This document shows, piece by piece, positions 2,699-41,601 of a stretch of 64,000 bases of DNA. Numbering within the stretch: position 1 is the stretch's first letter; every line of letters starts with the position of its first letter. This stretch comes from Spirochaetota bacterium. GTDB lineage: Bacteria > Spirochaetota > UBA12135 > COTS27 > CBDBHE01. A program made the translations under genes and the position numbers. The stretch lies in NCBI GenBank assembly GCA_965205605.1, contig CBDBHE010000006.1, positions 128,001-192,000 on the forward strand, in the 5' to 3' direction. The notes beneath the pieces were generated by a model. That model saw only the letters and a program-made list of their open reading frames with translations, did no database searches and had not been told where the DNA came from.

Positions 2699-3910
2699 TT
2701 AAAGTGTTTTTTTAAAGTATTGATCTAAAGTGAGGATGACTTTTTCGATTTGAGTTGTTTTCATTTGGGAGAAAAAAGGGAGAGAGATTTGAGAAGTAGC
2801 TAGTTGGTCAGTTTTAGAGAATGAGGTTATGGAGTAACCTAATTTTTTATAATAAGTCATTTTCGGTAAGGGAATATAATGCACATTGGCTTCAATTTTT
2901 TTTTTTTTAAGAAAATCGATAACGTGGTTTCTTTTTTCTTCATTGATATTTTTCAGCCTAATAGAAAGTAAGTGACAAGCGGAGGTTGTTTTTTGGCAAA
3001 GAGTAGGTCTTAAAAGAGCCCAAGTTTTTTTCTGAAGCTGTTTAACATAGTAATTTTTTAAAGACTTTCTCTTTTCAAGTAAAACGGGGTATCTTTTTAA
3101 TTGGATAAGGCCGATGGCTGCTTGAATATCAGTCATATTATACTTATAACCTAAATCGACAACATCATATTGCCAAGTTTTTTTTTGATGCTTTTGGTAA
3201 GGGTCTTGATCTCTACCGTGAAGAGAAAGTCGCTTGATAATGGTTTCTAATTTTTTTTTATTGACGCCTTTTAATTGGTTTAAAATTAAAGCTCCTCCGT
3301 CACCGGTGGTAATATTTTTAGTGGCATGAAAAGAAAAAATATTAATATCAGCATAGGTACTGGCTTGTTTGTCATTTAAGATGGCGCCAAGTGAATGGGA
3401 AGCATCGGCAATACAGAGGATTCTGCCCAATTGTTTTTGAAACTGATTCTTTGAAGGAGAAAATTTTTTTTTTTTTTCAATGATGATGTTCATAATATTT
3501 TTGTAATCACAAGGATCCCCTGCATAATCAACTGGAATAATGGCTTTTGTTTTAGAAGTAATGGCTTTTTCTATTTTGTTTGGATCGATGTTAAAATCTT
3601 CTCTAATGTCAACAAAAATGGGTTTAGCACCTGTTTGTAAAATTGCAGCAGCTGTTGCAGAAAAAGTCATAGGGGTTGTAATCACTTCATCGCCTTTGCC
3701 GATACCAAAGGCTTTAAGGCTTAAAAAAAGAGAAGCGGTTGCAGAATTAAGGACGATGGCTTTATAGCACTTGGTATATTTTTCAATGGCTGCTTCAAAC
3801 TCTTCTACTTTAGGGCCTCGATTAATCCAATTTGATAACAATACTTTTTTAACTTCATTAACTTCTTGTTGAGTGATGTTGTGAGAAGTGAAGGGAATAT
3901 GAAACATCAA
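2699..3910 (-). CDS. DegT/DnrJ/EryC1/StrS family PLP-dependent sugar aminotransferase
   Basis: NSATASL, DASHS, SFHATKNITTGDGG, GYKYNMTD. Confidence 0.92.
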   Translation of the reverse strand: MMFHIPFTSHNITQQEVNEVKKVLLSNWINRGPKVEEFEAAIEKYTKCYKAIVLNSATASLFLSLKAFGIGKGDEVITTPMTFSATAAAILQTGAKPIFVDIREDFNIDPNKIEKAITSKTKAIIPVDYAGDPCDYKNIMNIIIEKKKKFSPSKNQFQKQLGRILCIADASHSLGAILNDKQASTYADINIFSFHATKNITTGDGGALILNQLKGVNKKKLETIIKRLSLHGRDQDPYQKHQKKTWQYDVVDLGYKYNMTDIQAAIGLIQLKRYPVLLEKRKSLKNYYVKQLQKKTWALLRPTLCQKTTSACHLLSIRLKNINEEKRNHVIDFLKKKKIEANVHYIPLPKMTYYKKLGYSITSFSKTDQLATSQISLPFFSQMKTTQIEKVILTLDQYFKKTL

Positions 3911-3911
3911 A

Positions 3912-5009
3912 TTAGTGTTTAAAGCGATTGATATGTTCGGTAATTTTATTTTGGTCTTTTTTTTTTAAAAAAGCACTTATAGGGAGGCTAATAATGTCTT
4001 TGCTAATTTTTTCTGCTATAGGAAAATCTCCTTTTTTGTAGTTGAGATAATTAAATGCTTTTTGAAGATGAATCGGGGGGGCATAAAAAATAGAATAGGG
4101 AATTTTTTTAGTTTTTAAATGTTTAATAAAATCTTCTCTGTTAGAAATTCTAATAGAATATTGAGCAAAGGTAGACGTTTGGTATCTAGGAATATGAGGG
4201 GTAACGACATTACTAGAAAAAAGCTTTTCGTTATAATCATTTGCGATGGATTGTCTCTTTTTAATTTCGTCATCTAAATGTTGTAGTTTTACGGTTAGAA
4301 TAGCGGCTTGAATATTATCGATACGTCCATTAATGCCAATATACAAGTGGTCGTGTTGAGTTTTCCCATGATTTAAAAGAGCTCGAATTTTTATTTCTAA
4401 TTTTTTATCAGAAGTAAAAATAGCTCCTCCATCTCCATAACAACCTAAGGGTTTTGAAGGATAAAAACTTGTGCAAGCAATTTTAGAAAGATTACAAGAA
4501 TGCTTTGTTTTATACAAAGCTCCAAAAGATTGGCTGGCATCTTCGATAACCGTTAATTTGTGTTTTTTAGCAATTTGATTGATGGCATCCATATTCGATG
4601 TAAGTCCAAAAAGAGAAACCGGTATAATGGCTTTGGTTTTTTTGCTAATTTTTTCTTCAATTAAGTTTGGGTTGATGTTGTAAGTGAGTTCATCAATATC
4701 AACAAAAACAGGCTTTGCTTTTAAAATAGCAATGGCTTCGGCGGTTGCAATGAAAGTAAAAGGGCTTGTAATAACTTCGTCTTTTTCTTTAATGTCAAGA
4801 GCCATTAAAGCTAGTTGTAAAGCCGTCGTCCCACTCGAACATCCCATCGCAAAAGAAGCTCCTGAATAGGTTGCAAGAGAAGATTCAAAATCTTTTAAAA
4901 TCTTTCCTCCTAAAAATTGAGTACTTTTGATTGTTTTATTAATTGCTTTTTTAAGAGATCGTTTATACGAAGAATATTGAGATTTTAAATTGACAAAAGG
5001 GATTGTCAT
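3912..5009 (-). CDS. DegT/DnrJ family sugar aminotransferase (WbpE/WlbC-like)
   Basis: SSGTTAL, TFIATAE, EDASQSFG, SFYPSKPLGCYGDGG, NGRIDNIQAA. Confidence 0.92.
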   Translation of the reverse strand: MTIPFVNLKSQYSSYKRSLKKAINKTIKSTQFLGGKILKDFESSLATYSGASFAMGCSSGTTALQLALMALDIKEKDEVITSPFTFIATAEAIAILKAKPVFVDIDELTYNINPNLIEEKISKKTKAIIPVSLFGLTSNMDAINQIAKKHKLTVIEDASQSFGALYKTKHSCNLSKIACTSFYPSKPLGCYGDGGAIFTSDKKLEIKIRALLNHGKTQHDHLYIGINGRIDNIQAAILTVKLQHLDDEIKKRQSIANDYNEKLFSSNVVTPHIPRYQTSTFAQYSIRISNREDFIKHLKTKKIPYSIFYAPPIHLQKAFNYLNYKKGDFPIAEKISKDIISLPISAFLKKKDQNKITEHINRFKH

Positions 5010-34735: not shown

Positions 34736-35152
34736 ATGAAGTTTTTTTATTTTTCTGTTTTTTCTTTAAGTCAGTGTTTTTTGATATTTTCTTGCTTTGG
34801 AGGTGACCGCAAACAAAAAAAAACATTAACCCCTAAAGAACAGCTTATTTCCGAAGGACAGAAGATGTATCATATAAGAGGTTGTGTTAAATGTCATGGC
34901 TTTAAAGGAGATGGAAAAGGGCCTCTTATGATGACGTATCGGGGGACGTATCGGGCACGTGATTTTTCTAATTTAAAAGCGTATCGACAAGGGAGTAATT
35001 TAAAACAAATGATGCAGACCATTAAAGTAGGCATTACCAATGTCAAAACAACGATGCCAGCATTTCCTTACTTATCTGAGAAAGAAAAACTCTCTATAGC
35101 AACTTATATTATTTATCTTAGAGAGCTTTCTTTAAAATCAACTAATTTTTAA
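34736..35152 (+). CDS. Monoheme c-type cytochrome (probable lipoprotein)
   Basis: LIFSC lipobox, CVKCHG..GDGKGP, RDF, MPAF. Confidence 0.85.
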   Translation: MKFFYFSVFSLSQCFLIFSCFGGDRKQKKTLTPKEQLISEGQKMYHIRGCVKCHGFKGDGKGPLMMTYRGTYRARDFSNLKAYRQGSNLKQMMQTIKVGITNVKTTMPAFPYLSEKEKLSIATYIIYLRELSLKSTNF

Positions 35153-36664: not shown

Positions 36665-37555
36665 TTAAGTTTTATAAAGATAAGCGACTTGTTTTTCATA
36701 GCCATTGTAAGGCAGGGTTTTTTGGATTTTGTTGCTACCGATTAGTCTTTCCCATTTTTGGGACCACCTAGGGTGAGGTACTTTGGGGTTAACATTAGAG
36801 AAAAAGCCGTATTCTTTTGGAGCGACATCGTTCCAAAAAGTGGCTGGTTTTTTATTGGTGAATTCGATTGAAACAATACTTTTAATACTTTTATAGCCAT
36901 ATTTCCAAGGAGTAATGATTCTTACAGGGGCTCCATTTTGTTTTGGAAGTGCTTTCCCATACATTCCAATCGTCAATAAAGTAAGAGGATTTAAGGCTTC
37001 ATCTAGTCGCAGTCCTTCATAATAAGGCCAAGGATAATAGGGGGCTGTTTTAATACCAGGCATTTGTTTGGGTTTGTAAGCGGTTACAAATCGAACATAT
37101 TTTGCTTTTTTAAGAGGCTTGGCGTCTTTTATAATATCTCTAAAAGCGATTCCCATCCAAGGTACAACCATTGCCCATTTCTCAACACATCGAAATCGAT
37201 AGATCCTTTCCTCAACATTAAAACGCTTGGTATATGAATACAAATCTACTTTTTTTTGATTTTCACAAAGACCTTTAATTTCTATTTCCCAAGGATTGAT
37301 TTCAAATCGACGTGTGTTTTTTATTACTTTTTCTTTATCAAGACCAAACTCATAAAAGTTATTATAACTAGTTGCTATTTTTTCGTTTGTTATTTGTAAG
37401 TTAGTTTTTTTTTTGGCTTTAATAAAGGAAGCAAGACTAAAAGTAGTTGCTAAAAGAGCTGTTTTTTTTATGAAGCTTCTTCGATGATTAAAAATAGATT
37501 CATCAGTAACGTCATTTTCAGTTAAAGCCCATTCTTTTTTTTGATGATAATGCAT
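36665..37555 (-). CDS. msrP: Periplasmic protein-methionine-sulfoxide reductase, molybdopterin catalytic subunit
   Basis: Tat signal HRRSFIK, YNNFYEFG, RFRCVE.W, QNGAP.R, PWKYG.KS.K, HPRWSQ. Confidence 0.94.
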   Translation of the reverse strand: MHYHQKKEWALTENDVTDESIFNHRRSFIKKTALLATTFSLASFIKAKKKTNLQITNEKIATSYNNFYEFGLDKEKVIKNTRRFEINPWEIEIKGLCENQKKVDLYSYTKRFNVEERIYRFRCVEKWAMVVPWMGIAFRDIIKDAKPLKKAKYVRFVTAYKPKQMPGIKTAPYYPWPYYEGLRLDEALNPLTLLTIGMYGKALPKQNGAPVRIITPWKYGYKSIKSIVSIEFTNKKPATFWNDVAPKEYGFFSNVNPKVPHPRWSQKWERLIGSNKIQKTLPYNGYEKQVAYLYKT

Positions 37556-37592
37556 TTTTATAGGATTTGCTTCTTAAAGAGAAAACGAATCA

Positions 37593-38951
37593 TTATTCTG
37601 GAAAAATTTGATTACCTGCCTTTAGGTCAGAAACAACCGATATATCTTTTAAGGTTCTTTTTTGAGAAGGCCCATTTTCTAAATTAAGCACCCCTCTAGG
37701 GCAAACAGTAGAACACAACCCGCAACCTACGCAAGAAGATCTTACGATATTTTGTCCTCTTTGAGCGTACCATTTAACATCGATACCCATTTCACAATAA
37801 GTAGAACAATTGCCACAAGAAATACAAAGAGAACCATTAGTGGTGATTCGAAATCTTGAAAAAAACCGTTGTAAAACACCTAAAATAGCAGCTTGAGGGC
37901 ATCCAAATCGGCACCAAAGCCGTGTCCCAAAAATTGGATAAAATCCTGTCCCAACAACACCTGCAAAGACCATCCCAATCAAAGTCCCATAAACCATTCG
38001 AAATTCTTTTGATAAAGGACCAAAAATGGAGTTGGGTTTCATTAGATCAATCCATAAGAAAACGGTTGTCGTAATAATAAAAAGAAGCACGCTATAAATA
38101 CTAATTCTTTCTATTTTCCAAGAAATAAGCTTCTTAGAAGATAATTGTCTCCAAGGATCCCCAAGAGTATTGGCAAGGCCTCCACAACCACAAACCCAAG
38201 AACAATACCATCTTTTACCATAAAAATAAGTTAAAATAGGAACGGCAACAAAAGATAACGCAATCGACCAAGCGAGTAAAAAAATGCTTAATTTACCTGG
38301 ATGATTTAGCATATAATCAATATTACTTGGAAAAATGTCTTGATAACTTAAAGGCCAAAAATAATTTACGTATTTTTGAGGTTCTTTTAAAAAAACTAAA
38401 ATAGCTGGGATTAAATAAGCAAAAATAGATTGAAAAAAGATAACTGATAAGGTTCTAATAATTTGATAAGCACTGTGTCGATATTTTACGATTGCCCTAA
38501 TTCCCATCATGAAAATTAAAAAAGTATACAGAGAGCCATATAAGAAATATTGATCAGACCCCCTCCCTCTTAAAGAGTAAGAGAAAGCATCTGTCATTTT
38601 AATCAGATGTTTTAAAGTAAAAGGGAACCAATACATTAAAATATAAAACCCGGTTAAAAAAAGACACAGCATCCAAGCAAAGGCACCTCGGTGAGTTAAA
38701 AAAGATGTGGTAATGTTATCATTTTTAACCCCCGCAGGAGTTTTTAAGTAATGTTTTAAAATATAAATAAGAGCCCCTACACTTATAAAACTAAGGCTTA
38801 AACCAAAAAAAAGTTTTGGTTGATGACTGCCTCCACCAAAAGCACCAATAAAAAATAAAAAAACCCCAATAGAAAAAATAAAAAGACCACTTTTTTCTAT
38901 AAAGCCTAAAGAATAATCTTTAATAAGACTAGTTGAATCATTTGTATTCAT
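37593..38951 (-). CDS. Polytopic membrane 4Fe-4S binding protein (NapH/YccM-like polyferredoxin)
   Basis: Many TM helices; RWYCSWVCGCG, RLWCRFGCP, CISCGNCSTYC, CVGCGLCSTVCP. Confidence 0.88.
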   Translation of the reverse strand: MNTNDSTSLIKDYSLGFIEKSGLFIFSIGVFLFFIGAFGGGSHQPKLFFGLSLSFISVGALIYILKHYLKTPAGVKNDNITTSFLTHRGAFAWMLCLFLTGFYILMYWFPFTLKHLIKMTDAFSYSLRGRGSDQYFLYGSLYTFLIFMMGIRAIVKYRHSAYQIIRTLSVIFFQSIFAYLIPAILVFLKEPQKYVNYFWPLSYQDIFPSNIDYMLNHPGKLSIFLLAWSIALSFVAVPILTYFYGKRWYCSWVCGCGGLANTLGDPWRQLSSKKLISWKIERISIYSVLLFIITTTVFLWIDLMKPNSIFGPLSKEFRMVYGTLIGMVFAGVVGTGFYPIFGTRLWCRFGCPQAAILGVLQRFFSRFRITTNGSLCISCGNCSTYCEMGIDVKWYAQRGQNIVRSSCVGCGLCSTVCPRGVLNLENGPSQKRTLKDISVVSDLKAGNQIFPE

Positions 38952-38980
38952 TTTTAATTAAAACTCCTTGTATTGTGTTA

Positions 38981-40348
38981 TTAATTTCTACTTTGAAAGA
39001 TAGGGAATAATCCTTTTTTTGATTTTAATTTGATTGGATTTTCTTTGTGCAGGTTATTGTAAACATTAAGAACGTTTTTTTCAAAACTTTTATAAAATTC
39101 TGGATCAAAATTAACTTGCCCTAAATGAGCTAGAACATGAGAGAGCTTTTGTTTTTCGTGAATCCATTTTTCACATATTTGGTGTCTCCCTCGAATCCCT
39201 AAAAAATTAAAACCGATAACAGTTTGATTTGACTTTAAGTAGTTGATACGAATGCATCGTTGTCCATTAGGATCTTCCCAATAAATACTGGCTTCATTTT
39301 TTGGGTTTTTGTTTAAAATCATCCCATAAGTTTGATATTCAATATTAAAAAATTTAGCTGAATTAAACCAAATACCAGGAGAATAAAGGGTTTTTTCAAG
39401 AGTAATACTTCTGGCGACACATTCCCCTTGCATTTTTCCAGTATACCACAAAGGTTCACTTGGTTTTCGATTAGGGCTTGGCTTTTTTAAAGCAGAACAG
39501 TCCCCAATCGCATACACATCCTCCATGTTTGTTTGCATATAATCATTAACAAGAATTCCTTTTTTATCAATTTCAAGATCACTATCTTTTAAAAAATCAA
39601 CATTAGCTCTCACTCCTATAGTAATTCCTAAAAAATCACAAGGGATTTCTTCACCTTTAGTGGTAATAATAGCTCTGACTTGTCCTTGTTGATTAGATAA
39701 GATTTCTTTTAATTCTGTTTCAGTTTTAAGGTGAACATGGTGTCTTTTGATTTCTCGGGTAATAAGCTTTGCTTCTTCTTCAGGTAGGGTAGAGCTAAAA
39801 TACAAATGGCTGCGAATAAGAAAAGTGACTTTGATACCTCTAGACAAAAGCATTTCTGCCATTTCTACTCCAATAAGCCCTCCTCCAACAATGACTGCTT
39901 TTTTAATATTTTTAGTATTTTTTTCCATCTGCTCAAGCGATTGATAACTATAAAGTCCTTGGATGCCTTTTGATTCTTTTCCAGGCCAATTTAAAAAAAT
40001 AGGGATTGACCCTGTCGCTAAAATTAAAATATCATAATTCATTTCTTTTTCTTTAGATTTTTTTAAATGAAGTGTTTTATTTGAAAAATTGATTTTTTCT
40101 ACGTAAGCTTTAAGTAAGTTAATTTTATTTTTTTTCCAAAACCAATCTTCATAAGGTTTTGTTTGTTCATAAGTCAAATGCCCCATATAAATGTACATTA
40201 GAGCGGTTCTTGAGAAAAAGTGATCGGTTTCGTTTGAGATAATCGTAATGGTGTGCTTAGAATATTTTCTAATATATCGGGCAGCGGTAATGCCTGAAAT
40301 CCCATTTCCTATAATAACAATGTTTTTTTTAGTATTCACTTTGATCAT
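38981..40348 (-). CDS. NAD(P)/FAD-dependent pyridine nucleotide-disulfide oxidoreductase family protein
   Basis: IIGNGISG, LATGS, IVGGGLIGVE.AE, YAIGDC. Confidence 0.9.
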   Translation of the reverse strand: MIKVNTKKNIVIIGNGISGITAARYIRKYSKHTITIISNETDHFFSRTALMYIYMGHLTYEQTKPYEDWFWKKNKINLLKAYVEKINFSNKTLHLKKSKEKEMNYDILILATGSIPIFLNWPGKESKGIQGLYSYQSLEQMEKNTKNIKKAVIVGGGLIGVEMAEMLLSRGIKVTFLIRSHLYFSSTLPEEEAKLITREIKRHHVHLKTETELKEILSNQQGQVRAIITTKGEEIPCDFLGITIGVRANVDFLKDSDLEIDKKGILVNDYMQTNMEDVYAIGDCSALKKPSPNRKPSEPLWYTGKMQGECVARSITLEKTLYSPGIWFNSAKFFNIEYQTYGMILNKNPKNEASIYWEDPNGQRCIRINYLKSNQTVIGFNFLGIRGRHQICEKWIHEKQKLSHVLAHLGQVNFDPEFYKSFEKNVLNVYNNLHKENPIKLKSKKGLFPIFQSRN

Positions 40349-40536
40349 AACCCTTCAATATTAATAATGCTTTAAATTATAATCTAAAATTTGACTTTTT
40401 TTTCAAAAAGTAAAGTGAAATAAAAATAATCCCAAAAATTACAAATAACTAATAAAGAAGTCTTTTTAAATTTTAAAAAATAGGTTACTTTTTAAGTAAC
40501 TCTTATAAGTTTCAGGATTATTTTTATTTAAGTCAA

Positions 40537-41601
40537 ATGAAATCTAAAAAAAAAATTAAAAAATGGGGAAATTGGGAAAAAATTTCTTCTTTTAAAAAAA
40601 ATAAAAAAGATTCAAAACAAAAAGAGGAAAAAAACAATCAAGGAAAAATCGTTAAAAACTATGATGTGACTAAACTTGATAAGATTAATCTTAAAGCTAT
40701 TAAAGAAAAATATTCCCAAGTTTACTCAAAACAAGTCTCTAAAATCAATGAAATCAAAGCCCCAAAAATATGTTATTTTTGTGGTGTGAGTATTCAAAAA
40801 GAAAGTTTTTTTGTTTTTATTCCTCAAGAAAAAGAAATTTGTCGTGCTTGTTTGCAAACAAAAAATCAATGTAAAAATTGTGGTGTTTTAATTGCGTCTT
40901 TGCAAGTAAAAGGAATGGACCAAAAATATTGTGTTTATTGTAAGCCTCAAACAAAATGTTCGGCTTCTAATAAGAGCTTATTAATTAGCGAAGGAAGTCG
41001 ATTAGAAGGAACTTGTGGTTTTTTTTCTAAAGAAGCCCTTTCGAGAGGAAAAAAATGTTTTTTTTGTCAATTTCCTGCTTTTGAGATATTTTCAAAAGAT
41101 TCCAAAAATCCTTTTCTTTGTTTAAAATGTTCGTCAACTCTTTTAAAAAATGAATCAGATTTTCATTCAGTGCATTTAGACATTACTTCTTTTCTTAGAA
41201 GATATCAGCCGAGACGACTGAGGGCTACTTTTAAGATGCGATTTGTTCTTTTTAAAGCAGATTCTTTAAATTTTTTCAAAAAAGAAAATCGTTTATTTTG
41301 GGTGATAACACCGATGCCCAAACTATTTTTTATCGAATCTTTTTTAATGCATTATTTAAAAGATATTATTTGTCCTTATTATTTGTCTTTAAGAGAACGT
41401 GATCAAAAATTATTTTTTCAATTTGTGTGTTTTATTTTTTATCAATTTAAAGGATATTTACTTGAAAGTCTTAGGGTGAAAAAACAAGCTTTTAGAGGAA
41501 ATGGTTTTGGAGATGCTTTTAGAAATTATTACTTAATGTTAGAAGAAAGTGGCATTAAGAAAACATTAGATGTTCTTTTAAATGATTTGAAAGTAAGTTG
41601 A
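40537..41601 (+). CDS. Multi-CxxC zinc-finger protein with a DA1-like C-terminal domain
   Basis: CYFC, CRAC, CKNC, CVYC, CFFC, CLKC; C-terminal FGDAFR.....EESG. Confidence 0.6.
   Translation: MKSKKKIKKWGNWEKISSFKKNKKDSKQKEEKNNQGKIVKNYDVTKLDKINLKAIKEKYSQVYSKQVSKINEIKAPKICYFCGVSIQKESFFVFIPQEKEICRACLQTKNQCKNCGVLIASLQVKGMDQKYCVYCKPQTKCSASNKSLLISEGSRLEGTCGFFSKEALSRGKKCFFCQFPAFEIFSKDSKNPFLCLKCSSTLLKNESDFHSVHLDITSFLRRYQPRRLRATFKMRFVLFKADSLNFFKKENRLFWVITPMPKLFFIESFLMHYLKDIICPYYLSLRERDQKLFFQFVCFIFYQFKGYLLESLRVKKQAFRGNGFGDAFRNYYLMLEESGIKKTLDVLLNDLKVS

Follow-up and report, generated by a model that had tools for sequence, protein, structure and literature searches.

How does a periplasmic methionine sulfoxide reductase of the MsrP type obtain electrons in a genome where no msrQ can be found? 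The question is raised by a 64,000-nucleotide (nt) stretch of contig CBDBHE010000006.1 (positions 128,001-192,000), called the window here and numbered from its own first letter, in which msrP closes a run of three genes that begins with a flavoprotein (gene 1) and a polytopic membrane polyferredoxin (gene 2). MsrP is described as requiring MsrQ in the available part of a 2026 review (PMC13488963). The other articles cited below were likewise available in part, and what is taken from them is what those parts state. We felt that there is about an even chance that the three genes form an MsrQ-independent NAD(P)H supply line for periplasmic MsrP. A broader proposal is possible and is offered tentatively: a heme-free NAD(P)H module of this kind would be the general replacement for MsrQ in an unrecognised clade of MsrQ-less MsrPs, and elsewhere would deliver electrons to other periplasmic acceptors. 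That clade would extend over at least five phylum-level lineages, namely this genome, the phyla of genomes G406 and G410, and records titled Rhodothermia/Rhodothermales and Kapaibacteriota.

An earlier sequence-only reading of this DNA had placed three co-oriented genes here, separated by 29 and 37 nt, and open reading frames (ORFs) were found at exactly those positions. The unit and its boundaries are as follows, with lengths in amino acids (aa).

40379..40406, minus strand: promoter-like site TTGAAA-16 nt-GATTAT, found by consensus scan upstream of gene 1, candidate operon promoter
38981..40348, minus strand: gene 1, NAD(P)H/flavin adenine dinucleotide (FAD) oxidoreductase, 455 aa; PF07992 189 bits, PF00070 66 bits
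38952..38980, minus strand: gap of 29 nt between gene 1 and gene 2, with AAGGAG at 38969-38964
37593..38951, minus strand: gene 2, polytopic membrane polyferredoxin, 452 aa; Fer4_5 and dicluster families, about eight transmembrane helices
37556..37592, minus strand: gap of 37 nt between gene 2 and msrP, with a weak purine-rich AAGAAG at 37575-37570
36665..37555, minus strand: gene 3, msrP, 296 aa; NF003767 405.7 bits (cut-off 207), PF00174 101.7 bits
36080..36652, plus strand: efp, 3' boundary of the unit, convergent with msrP; TIGR00038 192.6 bits (cut-off 185.8)

The AAGGAG hexamer stands 12 nt ahead of the gene 2 start as a candidate ribosome-binding site. This operon-like layout suggests that the three genes are one transcription unit. 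The consensus scan found neither promoter-like nor terminator-like sites inside the 29- and 37-nt gaps, the second of which the sequence-only reading had singled out as the place where an independent promoter would speak against it. The scan reports consensus matches only, and gave 12 sites in the region against 20.4 expected in shuffles. At the other end the stop codons of msrP and efp are 12 nt apart, and the flank on which msrQ might have followed is occupied by efp, as had been noted.

The window enzyme is classed as an MsrP by its score, its signal and its conserved residues, and it lacks the family's usual MsrQ partner. Export by the twin-arginine translocation (Tat) system had been proposed, and the protein combines an NF003767 score well over the cut-off with the twin-arginine motif RRSFIK at residues 25-30, in which R25 and R26 are invariant among 54 homologues. 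C123, N65, N66, Y68, E69 and F70 are invariant in the homologue alignment as well. We take the conserved cysteine to be the molybdenum ligand and the YNNFYEF-type stretch to be the active site. TatC (170.1 bits) and MoeA (MoeA_N) are encoded elsewhere in the genome, so the enzyme can be exported and matured. Methionine sulfoxide reduction is assigned by family, and as MsrQ-less MsrPs occupy a separate part of the tree, the substrate of this one may have shifted.

A search of the whole genome for msrQ, which the sequence-only reading had called for, found none with two models. The assembly comprises 1.69 Mb in 8 contigs and is 91.19% complete. PF01794 gave 0 matches in it at E<=1. A hidden Markov model (HMM) of MsrQ was built from 50 metagenome ORFs downstream of msrP, of which two were confirmed by PF01794. 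This HMM recovers 64 ORFs at E<=1e-10 in the source contigs, and its best match in the six-frame translation of the window's genome is 12.7 bits (E 0.022). Both flanks of the window msrP are taken by other genes.

Gene 1 is read as a cytoplasmic Pyr_redox_2 enzyme of a ferredoxin-reductase-like class. It has a GxGxxG motif at residues 13-18 and no signal peptide in its sequence. Its scores stay under every NCBIfam equivalog cut-off (CoA-disulfide reductase is the highest, 173.7 against 578.8), and its closest matches in the PDB are CoA-disulfide reductases, NADH oxidases and ferredoxin reductases. The redox-active cysteine of CoA-disulfide reductase, NADH oxidase and NADH peroxidase enzymes presumably lies near residue 42. 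The stretch of gene 1 that matches this region, HFFSRTALMY, has no cysteine, and because the cysteine of the thiol enzymes is missing the ferredoxin-reductase type was preferred.

Gene 2 had been described as a polytopic membrane protein with two Cx3C-type and two 4Fe-4S motifs, and these were found as C250-x3-C254-x-C256, C347-x3-C351-P352, C376xxC379xxC382xxxC386 and C407xxC410xxC413xxxC417-P. All 15 motif cysteines are invariant in an alignment of 61 homologues. Fer4_5 (PF12801) is matched at 28.9 bits (cut-off 22), along with 4Fe-4S dicluster families. The AlphaFold2 model has eight long helices; with a mean predicted local distance difference test (pLDDT) value of 66.6, and below 50 in the iron-sulfur domain, it is usable for the helix count only. 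Foldseek with this model returned nothing from the PDB at E<=0.001, and a sequence search of the PDB returned generic ferredoxin domains only. The 4Fe-4S clusters are probably cytoplasmic, to judge from homology and analogy with NapH, the positive-inside pattern, and a fused form of the protein whose N-terminal flavoprotein is signal-less.

The membrane polyferredoxin and its NAD(P)H flavoprotein are referred to as the module, which occurs as a pair, with the flavoprotein gene directly upstream, or as a fusion, with the flavoprotein at the N terminus. The fusion in metagenome contig L104 is 754 aa long, with a Pyr_redox_3 flavoprotein at its N terminus and then a membrane domain in which the four cysteine motifs of gene 2 recur. 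Over 433 residues its membrane part and gene 2 are 31% identical, while the flavoprotein parts of pair and fusion share only 24% identity (26 bits). With kinship this remote, a flavoprotein input was joined to the membrane protein on two occasions, a functional tie between the two components. The 750-800 aa fusion architecture was found in five genomes of the window's phylum (L003-L007), in 12/12 further sampled matches from two other phyla, and in L214 and L215. A reading of the 750-800 aa relatives as NosR was rejected, as they are flavoprotein fusions.

Three of these fusions adjoin msrP. In L104 the fusion is followed after 108 nt by msrP, with no msrQ within 6 kb. In L214, from genome G677, 856 nt separate msrP from a fusion downstream, and genes for an OmpR-type regulator and a histidine kinase come next, all in one orientation. 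In L215, from G532, an ORF of 228 aa comes between msrP and the fusion, with a YjeF_N gene behind the latter. Including the window, there are four juxtapositions of msrP and module, in three gene orders and two module forms.

Directly behind msrP and the fusion in G677, the regulatory genes (L214:204-2436) encode a response regulator of OmpR type and a HAMP histidine kinase. They recall the HprSR two-component system, which we take to adjoin msrPQ in Escherichia coli.

The distribution of MsrP, module and MsrQ was surveyed by phylum, with the module, as pair or fusion, called present at E<=1e-25. In the phylum of G406 (record titled KSB1; 151 genomes sampled) MsrP exceeded the cut-off in 23/151 genomes and the module was present in 39. 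The module was carried by 21/23 MsrP genomes against 18/128 without MsrP; these counts include the unpublished G554 and G498, and excluding them gives 20/22 and 17/127. PF01794 was found in 19 genomes of this phylum but in only 3/23 with MsrP, where the frames measure 347-370 aa and never share a contig with msrP. In the phylum of G410 (record titled Latescibacterota, related loci Gemmatimonadota; 151 genomes) 80/151 genomes had MsrP and 100 had the module, which was present in 70/80 MsrP genomes against 30/71 without MsrP. Twelve genomes there had PF01794, only 5/80 of those with MsrP, unlinked and in frames of 363-465 aa. PF01794 is therefore missing from 20/23 and 75/80 MsrP genomes of the two phyla. 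The phylum of G407 (record titled Terrimicrobiaceae; 251 genomes) has the other arrangement: five genomes had MsrP, none of them with the module, and four had PF01794, in three cases directly beside msrP. Within the window's own phylum MsrP exceeded the cut-off in 6/401 genomes. In three of these (G015, G126 and G175) msrQ adjoins msrP and the module is missing, G168 is fragmentary, G013 is taken up below, and in the window's genome the pair is present without PF01794.

Genomes tested singly gave the same picture. PF01794 was found in 0/7 genomes with MsrP and pair (G406, G410, G962, G966, G967, G974 and G978), two of which, G974 and G978, are single-chromosome records. The MsrQ HMM had 0 matches in 16 msrP loci of pair-bearing genomes. 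Conversely, the module was found in 0/8 MsrP genomes of MsrQ-carrying lineages, and in six of these (G015, G126, G175, G755, G770 and G833) msrQ adjoins msrP. A metagenome set, 80 unselected msrP contigs kept out of 592 relatives of the window MsrP, served as baseline: msrQ was present in 66/80, 10 had flanks too short, 3 had neither msrQ nor module, and 1 was L104. An anticorrelation with msrQ had been put forward as a test by the sequence-only reading and appears in these counts. Counted by lineage, about four or five have MsrP and module without MsrQ, and two have MsrP and MsrQ without module. This complementarity is suggestive, not proof.

The neighbours of MsrQ-less msrP genes were inspected at 36 loci, and no other membrane redox gene was found beside them. 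They encode citrate synthase-like, methyltransferase-like, amidohydrolase_2, HNH and MOSC proteins, a TonB receptor and a conserved ORF of about 290 aa. In one msrP type of the G410 phylum this ORF precedes msrP on the same strand and amidohydrolase_2 follows. The ORF (L190:485-1360, L203:5349-6245, L213:5415-6242 and relatives) has a signal peptide and paired cysteines, matches no Pfam family and looks like a β-barrel. BLASTP gave no match to it in the window's genome at E<=1.

A quick maximum-likelihood tree of 120 MsrPs, unrooted and with support values from the Shimodaira-Hasegawa-like approximate likelihood-ratio test (SH-aLRT) only, was split by a single branch with support 100. One side has 73 rows: all 67 MsrQ-linked MsrPs, 5 with short flanks, and G013 on a long branch. 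The other side has 47 rows: 38 from module-bearing genomes, 5 with short flanks and 4 with neither partner, and it has 0 MsrQ-linked MsrPs. The window MsrP and all four adjacency cases are on this 47-row side. In a likewise quick tree of a 64-row subset the MsrQ-linked rows again fell on one side of a branch, with support 99. That the window MsrP is not nested among the MsrQ-linked MsrPs is robust.

A functional link between module and MsrP is favoured by the complementarity with MsrQ, by co-occurrence, by the four places where the two lie together and by the separate position of MsrQ-less MsrPs in the tree, and these several lines point to the module as the electron supply of MsrQ-less MsrP. 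In the route that we propose, the gene 1 flavoprotein would oxidise cytosolic NAD(P)H and pass electrons from its FAD to the two 4Fe-4S clusters predicted at the cytoplasmic C terminus of gene 2. From there they would move through the membrane domain to MsrP, perhaps with participation of the paired CX3C-motif site, and the Tat-exported MsrP would reduce methionine sulfoxide in envelope proteins. It has been argued that MsrQ has an exceptionally low potential and that MsrP cannot be driven by quinols, the source of electrons being cytosolic NAD(P)H by way of Fre (PMC12525009, as far as available). A flavoprotein that feeds low-potential clusters fits this logic of a low-potential, NAD(P)H-fed donor. 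NapH-like proteins have been presented as modular transmembrane electron conduits for periplasmic reductases (PMC8238504), and the accessible text of PMC13685413 recalls the same proposal for NosR and NosGH. This is the route from NAD(P)H through flavoprotein and polyferredoxin to MsrP that the sequence-only reading had drawn. The absence of MsrQ, the anticorrelation and the fusion adjacencies speak for it, the trio does not recur, and we infer the direction of electron flow, the membrane crossing and the transfer onto MsrP. A complex prediction for gene 2 with mature MsrP gave a best score of 0.14 against a mark of 0.32, which counts neither for nor against binding.

A number of observations weigh against the proposed route, among them the distribution of the pair. 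A scan of species genomes with gene 2 gave 554 relatives, and 80 loci with 48-61% identity were kept. In 78/80 the membrane gene is preceded, in the same orientation, by a gene 1 homologue, but 0/80 have msrP at 5 kb or less from the pair, and the trio, whose recurrence in other genomes had been proposed as a test, recurs nowhere else. In 60 pair-bearing genomes that were searched whole (20 of the 80 are outside this count), MsrP exceeded the cut-off in 17 (0/5, 2/5 and 15/50 by sample) and 43/60 had none. Likewise, a gene 2 relative was found near msrP in only 1/80 metagenome loci, L104. The pair is thus not dedicated to MsrP, and the idea that the trio gives the pair its function is too narrow as a general claim. 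The module is a widespread unit in its own right, and MsrP would be one client among others; the pair-type membrane protein has 211 cluster representatives at E<=1e-30 among 1.84 billion.

The phyletic pattern also has exceptions. At E<=1e-25 the module was absent from 2/23 and 10/80 MsrP genomes, and it was carried by the 18/128 and 30/71 genomes without MsrP. G863 and L202 (from G588) have neither module nor MsrQ, and metagenome loci L098, L159 and L169, with adequate flanks, show neither nearby. The counted genomes are kin, and the counts are uncorrected for phylogeny or genome size; many genomes of the G410 phylum that lack both MsrP and module are small. G013 has the fusion on another contig (L003/L217) and no PF01794 (best 22.5 bits), yet its MsrP (L095) falls in the MsrQ-linked clan; it may be a recent replacement of MsrQ or reflect an assembly gap. 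In the tree the window MsrP sits on a long branch and has a deviant composition. An approximately unbiased (AU) test does not reject a place for it as immediate neighbour of the MsrQ clan (p 0.79), and the tree constrained to that placement is 22.7 log units better than the quick free tree. An earlier AU test (p 3e-5) was discarded as badly posed, with short-flank rows and L095 nested in the MsrQ side. The window MsrP may lie within the MsrQ-less group or branch between the two groups.

The membrane protein itself raises further objections. No histidine is invariant in the helices of gene 2 among the 61 homologues, and neither FMN_bind nor another periplasmic redox domain is among its 14 Pfam matches. 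Every predicted cofactor is on the cytoplasmic side, which leaves no visible path across the membrane. The invariant residues of the membrane part of gene 2 are tyrosines and tryptophans in helices 3-5 and, in a periplasmic loop, Y194, Y197, W199 and P200. A role for them as quinone site, hopping chain or docking surface is speculation. Finally, an MsrP-ferredoxin fusion was seen in 0/50 long MsrP-containing proteins against 18/50 for MsrP-MsrQ fusions. This is weak evidence because the gene 2 C terminus is predicted to be cytoplasmic and MsrP is exported.

The main rival, which we consider rather unlikely, accepts the operon and denies the direct coupling. The module would share regulation and lifestyle with MsrP and have a separate task, such as that of an NAD(P)H:quinone reductase or another membrane reductase under oxidative stress, and MsrQ-less MsrP would be fed by a different donor. 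This would account for the 43/60 carriers without MsrP and the 0/80 linkage, for the cytoplasmic position of every predicted cofactor, and for the neighbours of the module in Bacteroidota-titled records, which are glycosyltransferases, DUF547 and rhodanese proteins and not periplasmic reductases. NapH, the nearest named relative, is described as a quinol dehydrogenase subunit (PMC5449189), and the co-occurrence, in counts not corrected for phylogeny, could mirror shared ancestry or an aerobic lifestyle. Co-regulation alone is harder to reconcile with four independent juxtapositions in three gene orders and two module forms, with the clean complementarity to MsrQ among MsrP genomes, and with the lack of any other membrane redox gene at the 36 MsrQ-less loci. 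Moreover, quinols are too oxidising for MsrP according to the portion of PMC12525009 available, and a quinone reductase alone would leave the link unexplained.

Chance juxtaposition, in which msrP and the pair arrived by horizontal transfer and their proximity has no functional meaning, seems to us improbable. Both are foreign to the lineage (MsrP in 6/401 genomes of the phylum, the pair type in 0/40 relatives), identity to their nearest homologues, in other phyla, is just 58-65%, and the trio was seen in this genome alone. Yet the genes share one orientation with operon-like gaps of 29 and 37 nt, a homologous module adjoins msrP three times elsewhere, and the phyletic patterns associate the module with MsrQ-less MsrP. 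By a rough estimate, with one or two module genes among 3000-5000, about 0.05 adjacencies would be expected per set of 80 loci or 70 genomes. An ordinary msrQ hidden in the approximately 9% of the genome that is unassembled, or too divergent to be detected, is very improbable indeed. The assembly, 91.19% complete in 8 contigs, makes absence there no proof. On the other hand, msrQ stood beside msrP in 66/80 baseline loci and here both flanks are occupied, two models came back empty, the window MsrP lies outside the MsrQ-linked clan, and the MsrQ-less state is seen also in the single-chromosome records G974 and G978.

The proposed supply line can be compared with several known systems. With MsrPQ (YedYZ) and Fre of E. 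coli it shares the catalytic subunit, an MsrP equivalog with a Tat signal and conserved cysteine, and the general logic of NAD(P)H to flavoprotein to low-potential membrane relay to MsrP (PMC12525009). It differs in that PF01794 is absent, the membrane partner, an iron-sulfur protein, has no heme-ligand histidines, the place of Fre is taken by an operon-encoded Pyr_redox_2 enzyme, and the window MsrP falls outside the MsrQ-linked clan.

With NapH of NapGH, gene 2 shares a polytopic architecture, two CX3CP-type and two C-terminal 4Fe-4S motifs and Fer4_5, and its best named NCBIfam matches are NapH and MauN. These matches are under the cut-offs (TIGR02163 56.5 against 213.05, NF007013 48.6 against 234), and gene 2 has about eight helices whereas NapH has four (PMC5449189). 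No NapG-like periplasmic ferredoxin adjoins at the locus, to which the search for nap genes was confined, the partner being a cytoplasmic flavoprotein. In NosR, PceC and the flavinylated NapH-like systems of Meheust et al. 2021, too, a NapH-like iron-sulfur membrane protein is proposed to serve a periplasmic reductase, in modular fashion with different enzymes. Theirs carry or adjoin an extracytosolic flavin mononucleotide (FMN)-binding domain matured by ApbE, in the available text of PMC8238504. Here neither gene 2 nor its neighbours match FMN_bind, and the added part is a cytoplasmic NAD(P)H flavoprotein, separate or N-terminal. From CcoG/FixG gene 2 differs in lacking Fer4_18 and the FixG C-terminal domain, both absent among its Pfam matches at E<=0.01; remoter relatives of gene 2 in L008 and L009 do match Fer4_18. 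By scores and domains gene 2 is thus no member of NapH, NosR or CcoG, and it probably works like NapH/NosR-type proteins.

MsrP domains with varied membrane carriers are also known as fusions, among them MsrQ-MsrP proteins (e.g. Sco3746, PMC5449189) and algal MsrP with cytochrome b561/DOMON. All those carriers are heme proteins, unlike gene 2. Among the 50 long MsrP-containing proteins, 18 have PF01794 and 3 have PF03188. Eight proteins (P0255-P0257, P0263, P0266, P0273, P0278 and P0279) join an MsrP-type domain to cytochrome b561 and/or DOMON, some of them source-named as green-algal. Beyond the 18 fusions of MsrP with MsrQ, which are bacterial, these proteins add a further, third type of membrane partner to MsrP-like enzymes.

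MsrP is common in two phyla that are almost without MsrQ and occupies its own part of the tree, so how such MsrPs are reduced is now a directly testable question. The window is the clearest candidate, since its msrP shares an operon with genes for an NAD(P)H flavoprotein and a membrane polyferredoxin. If the supply line is real, a large uncharacterised protein family gains its first client, the view that MsrP is fed by cytosolic NAD(P)H and not by quinols gains independent support, and the long-standing problem of electron transfer across the membrane by NapH/NosR-type proteins is put more sharply. Under the broader proposal the module would be a new class of transmembrane electron conduit with neither heme nor flavinylated domains. 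No paper linking MsrP to a polyferredoxin was found, with subscription journals outside the coverage, and literature searches on MsrP with "absence of MsrQ" and on YedY/YedZ phylogeny found nothing relevant.

Some minor features of the pair were recorded in the same scans. Several of the pair-type representatives P0293-P0300 are 580-660 aa long and their match begins at about residue 180-200, which could reflect an additional domain at the N terminus or, in GC-rich genomes, genes called too long. In Bacteroidota-titled pair loci (L014, L046, L070 and others) DUF547, family-2 glycosyltransferases and GT87 flank 23-24/80 loci, and rhodanese 8. This recurring neighbourhood may hint at the function of the module where MsrP is absent. 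The remaining neighbours, NAD kinase and Mg-chelatase-like genes for the pair and UxuA-like and DUF3179 genes for the fusion, give no functional clue.

Two further genes of the window lie outside the unit. A divergent ORF of 354 aa at 40537-41601 (+), 188 nt from gene 1, is rich in CxxC pairs. It has no Pfam or NCBIfam match and no relative among 164 retrieved loci, and it is unrelated to the zinc-ribbon ORF that stands between msrP and the fusion in L215. On the other side, 1.5 kb past efp, a small c-type cytochrome with a signal peptide is encoded at 34736-35152 (+; PF00034, 32.3 bits) and is a conceivable periplasmic electron carrier.

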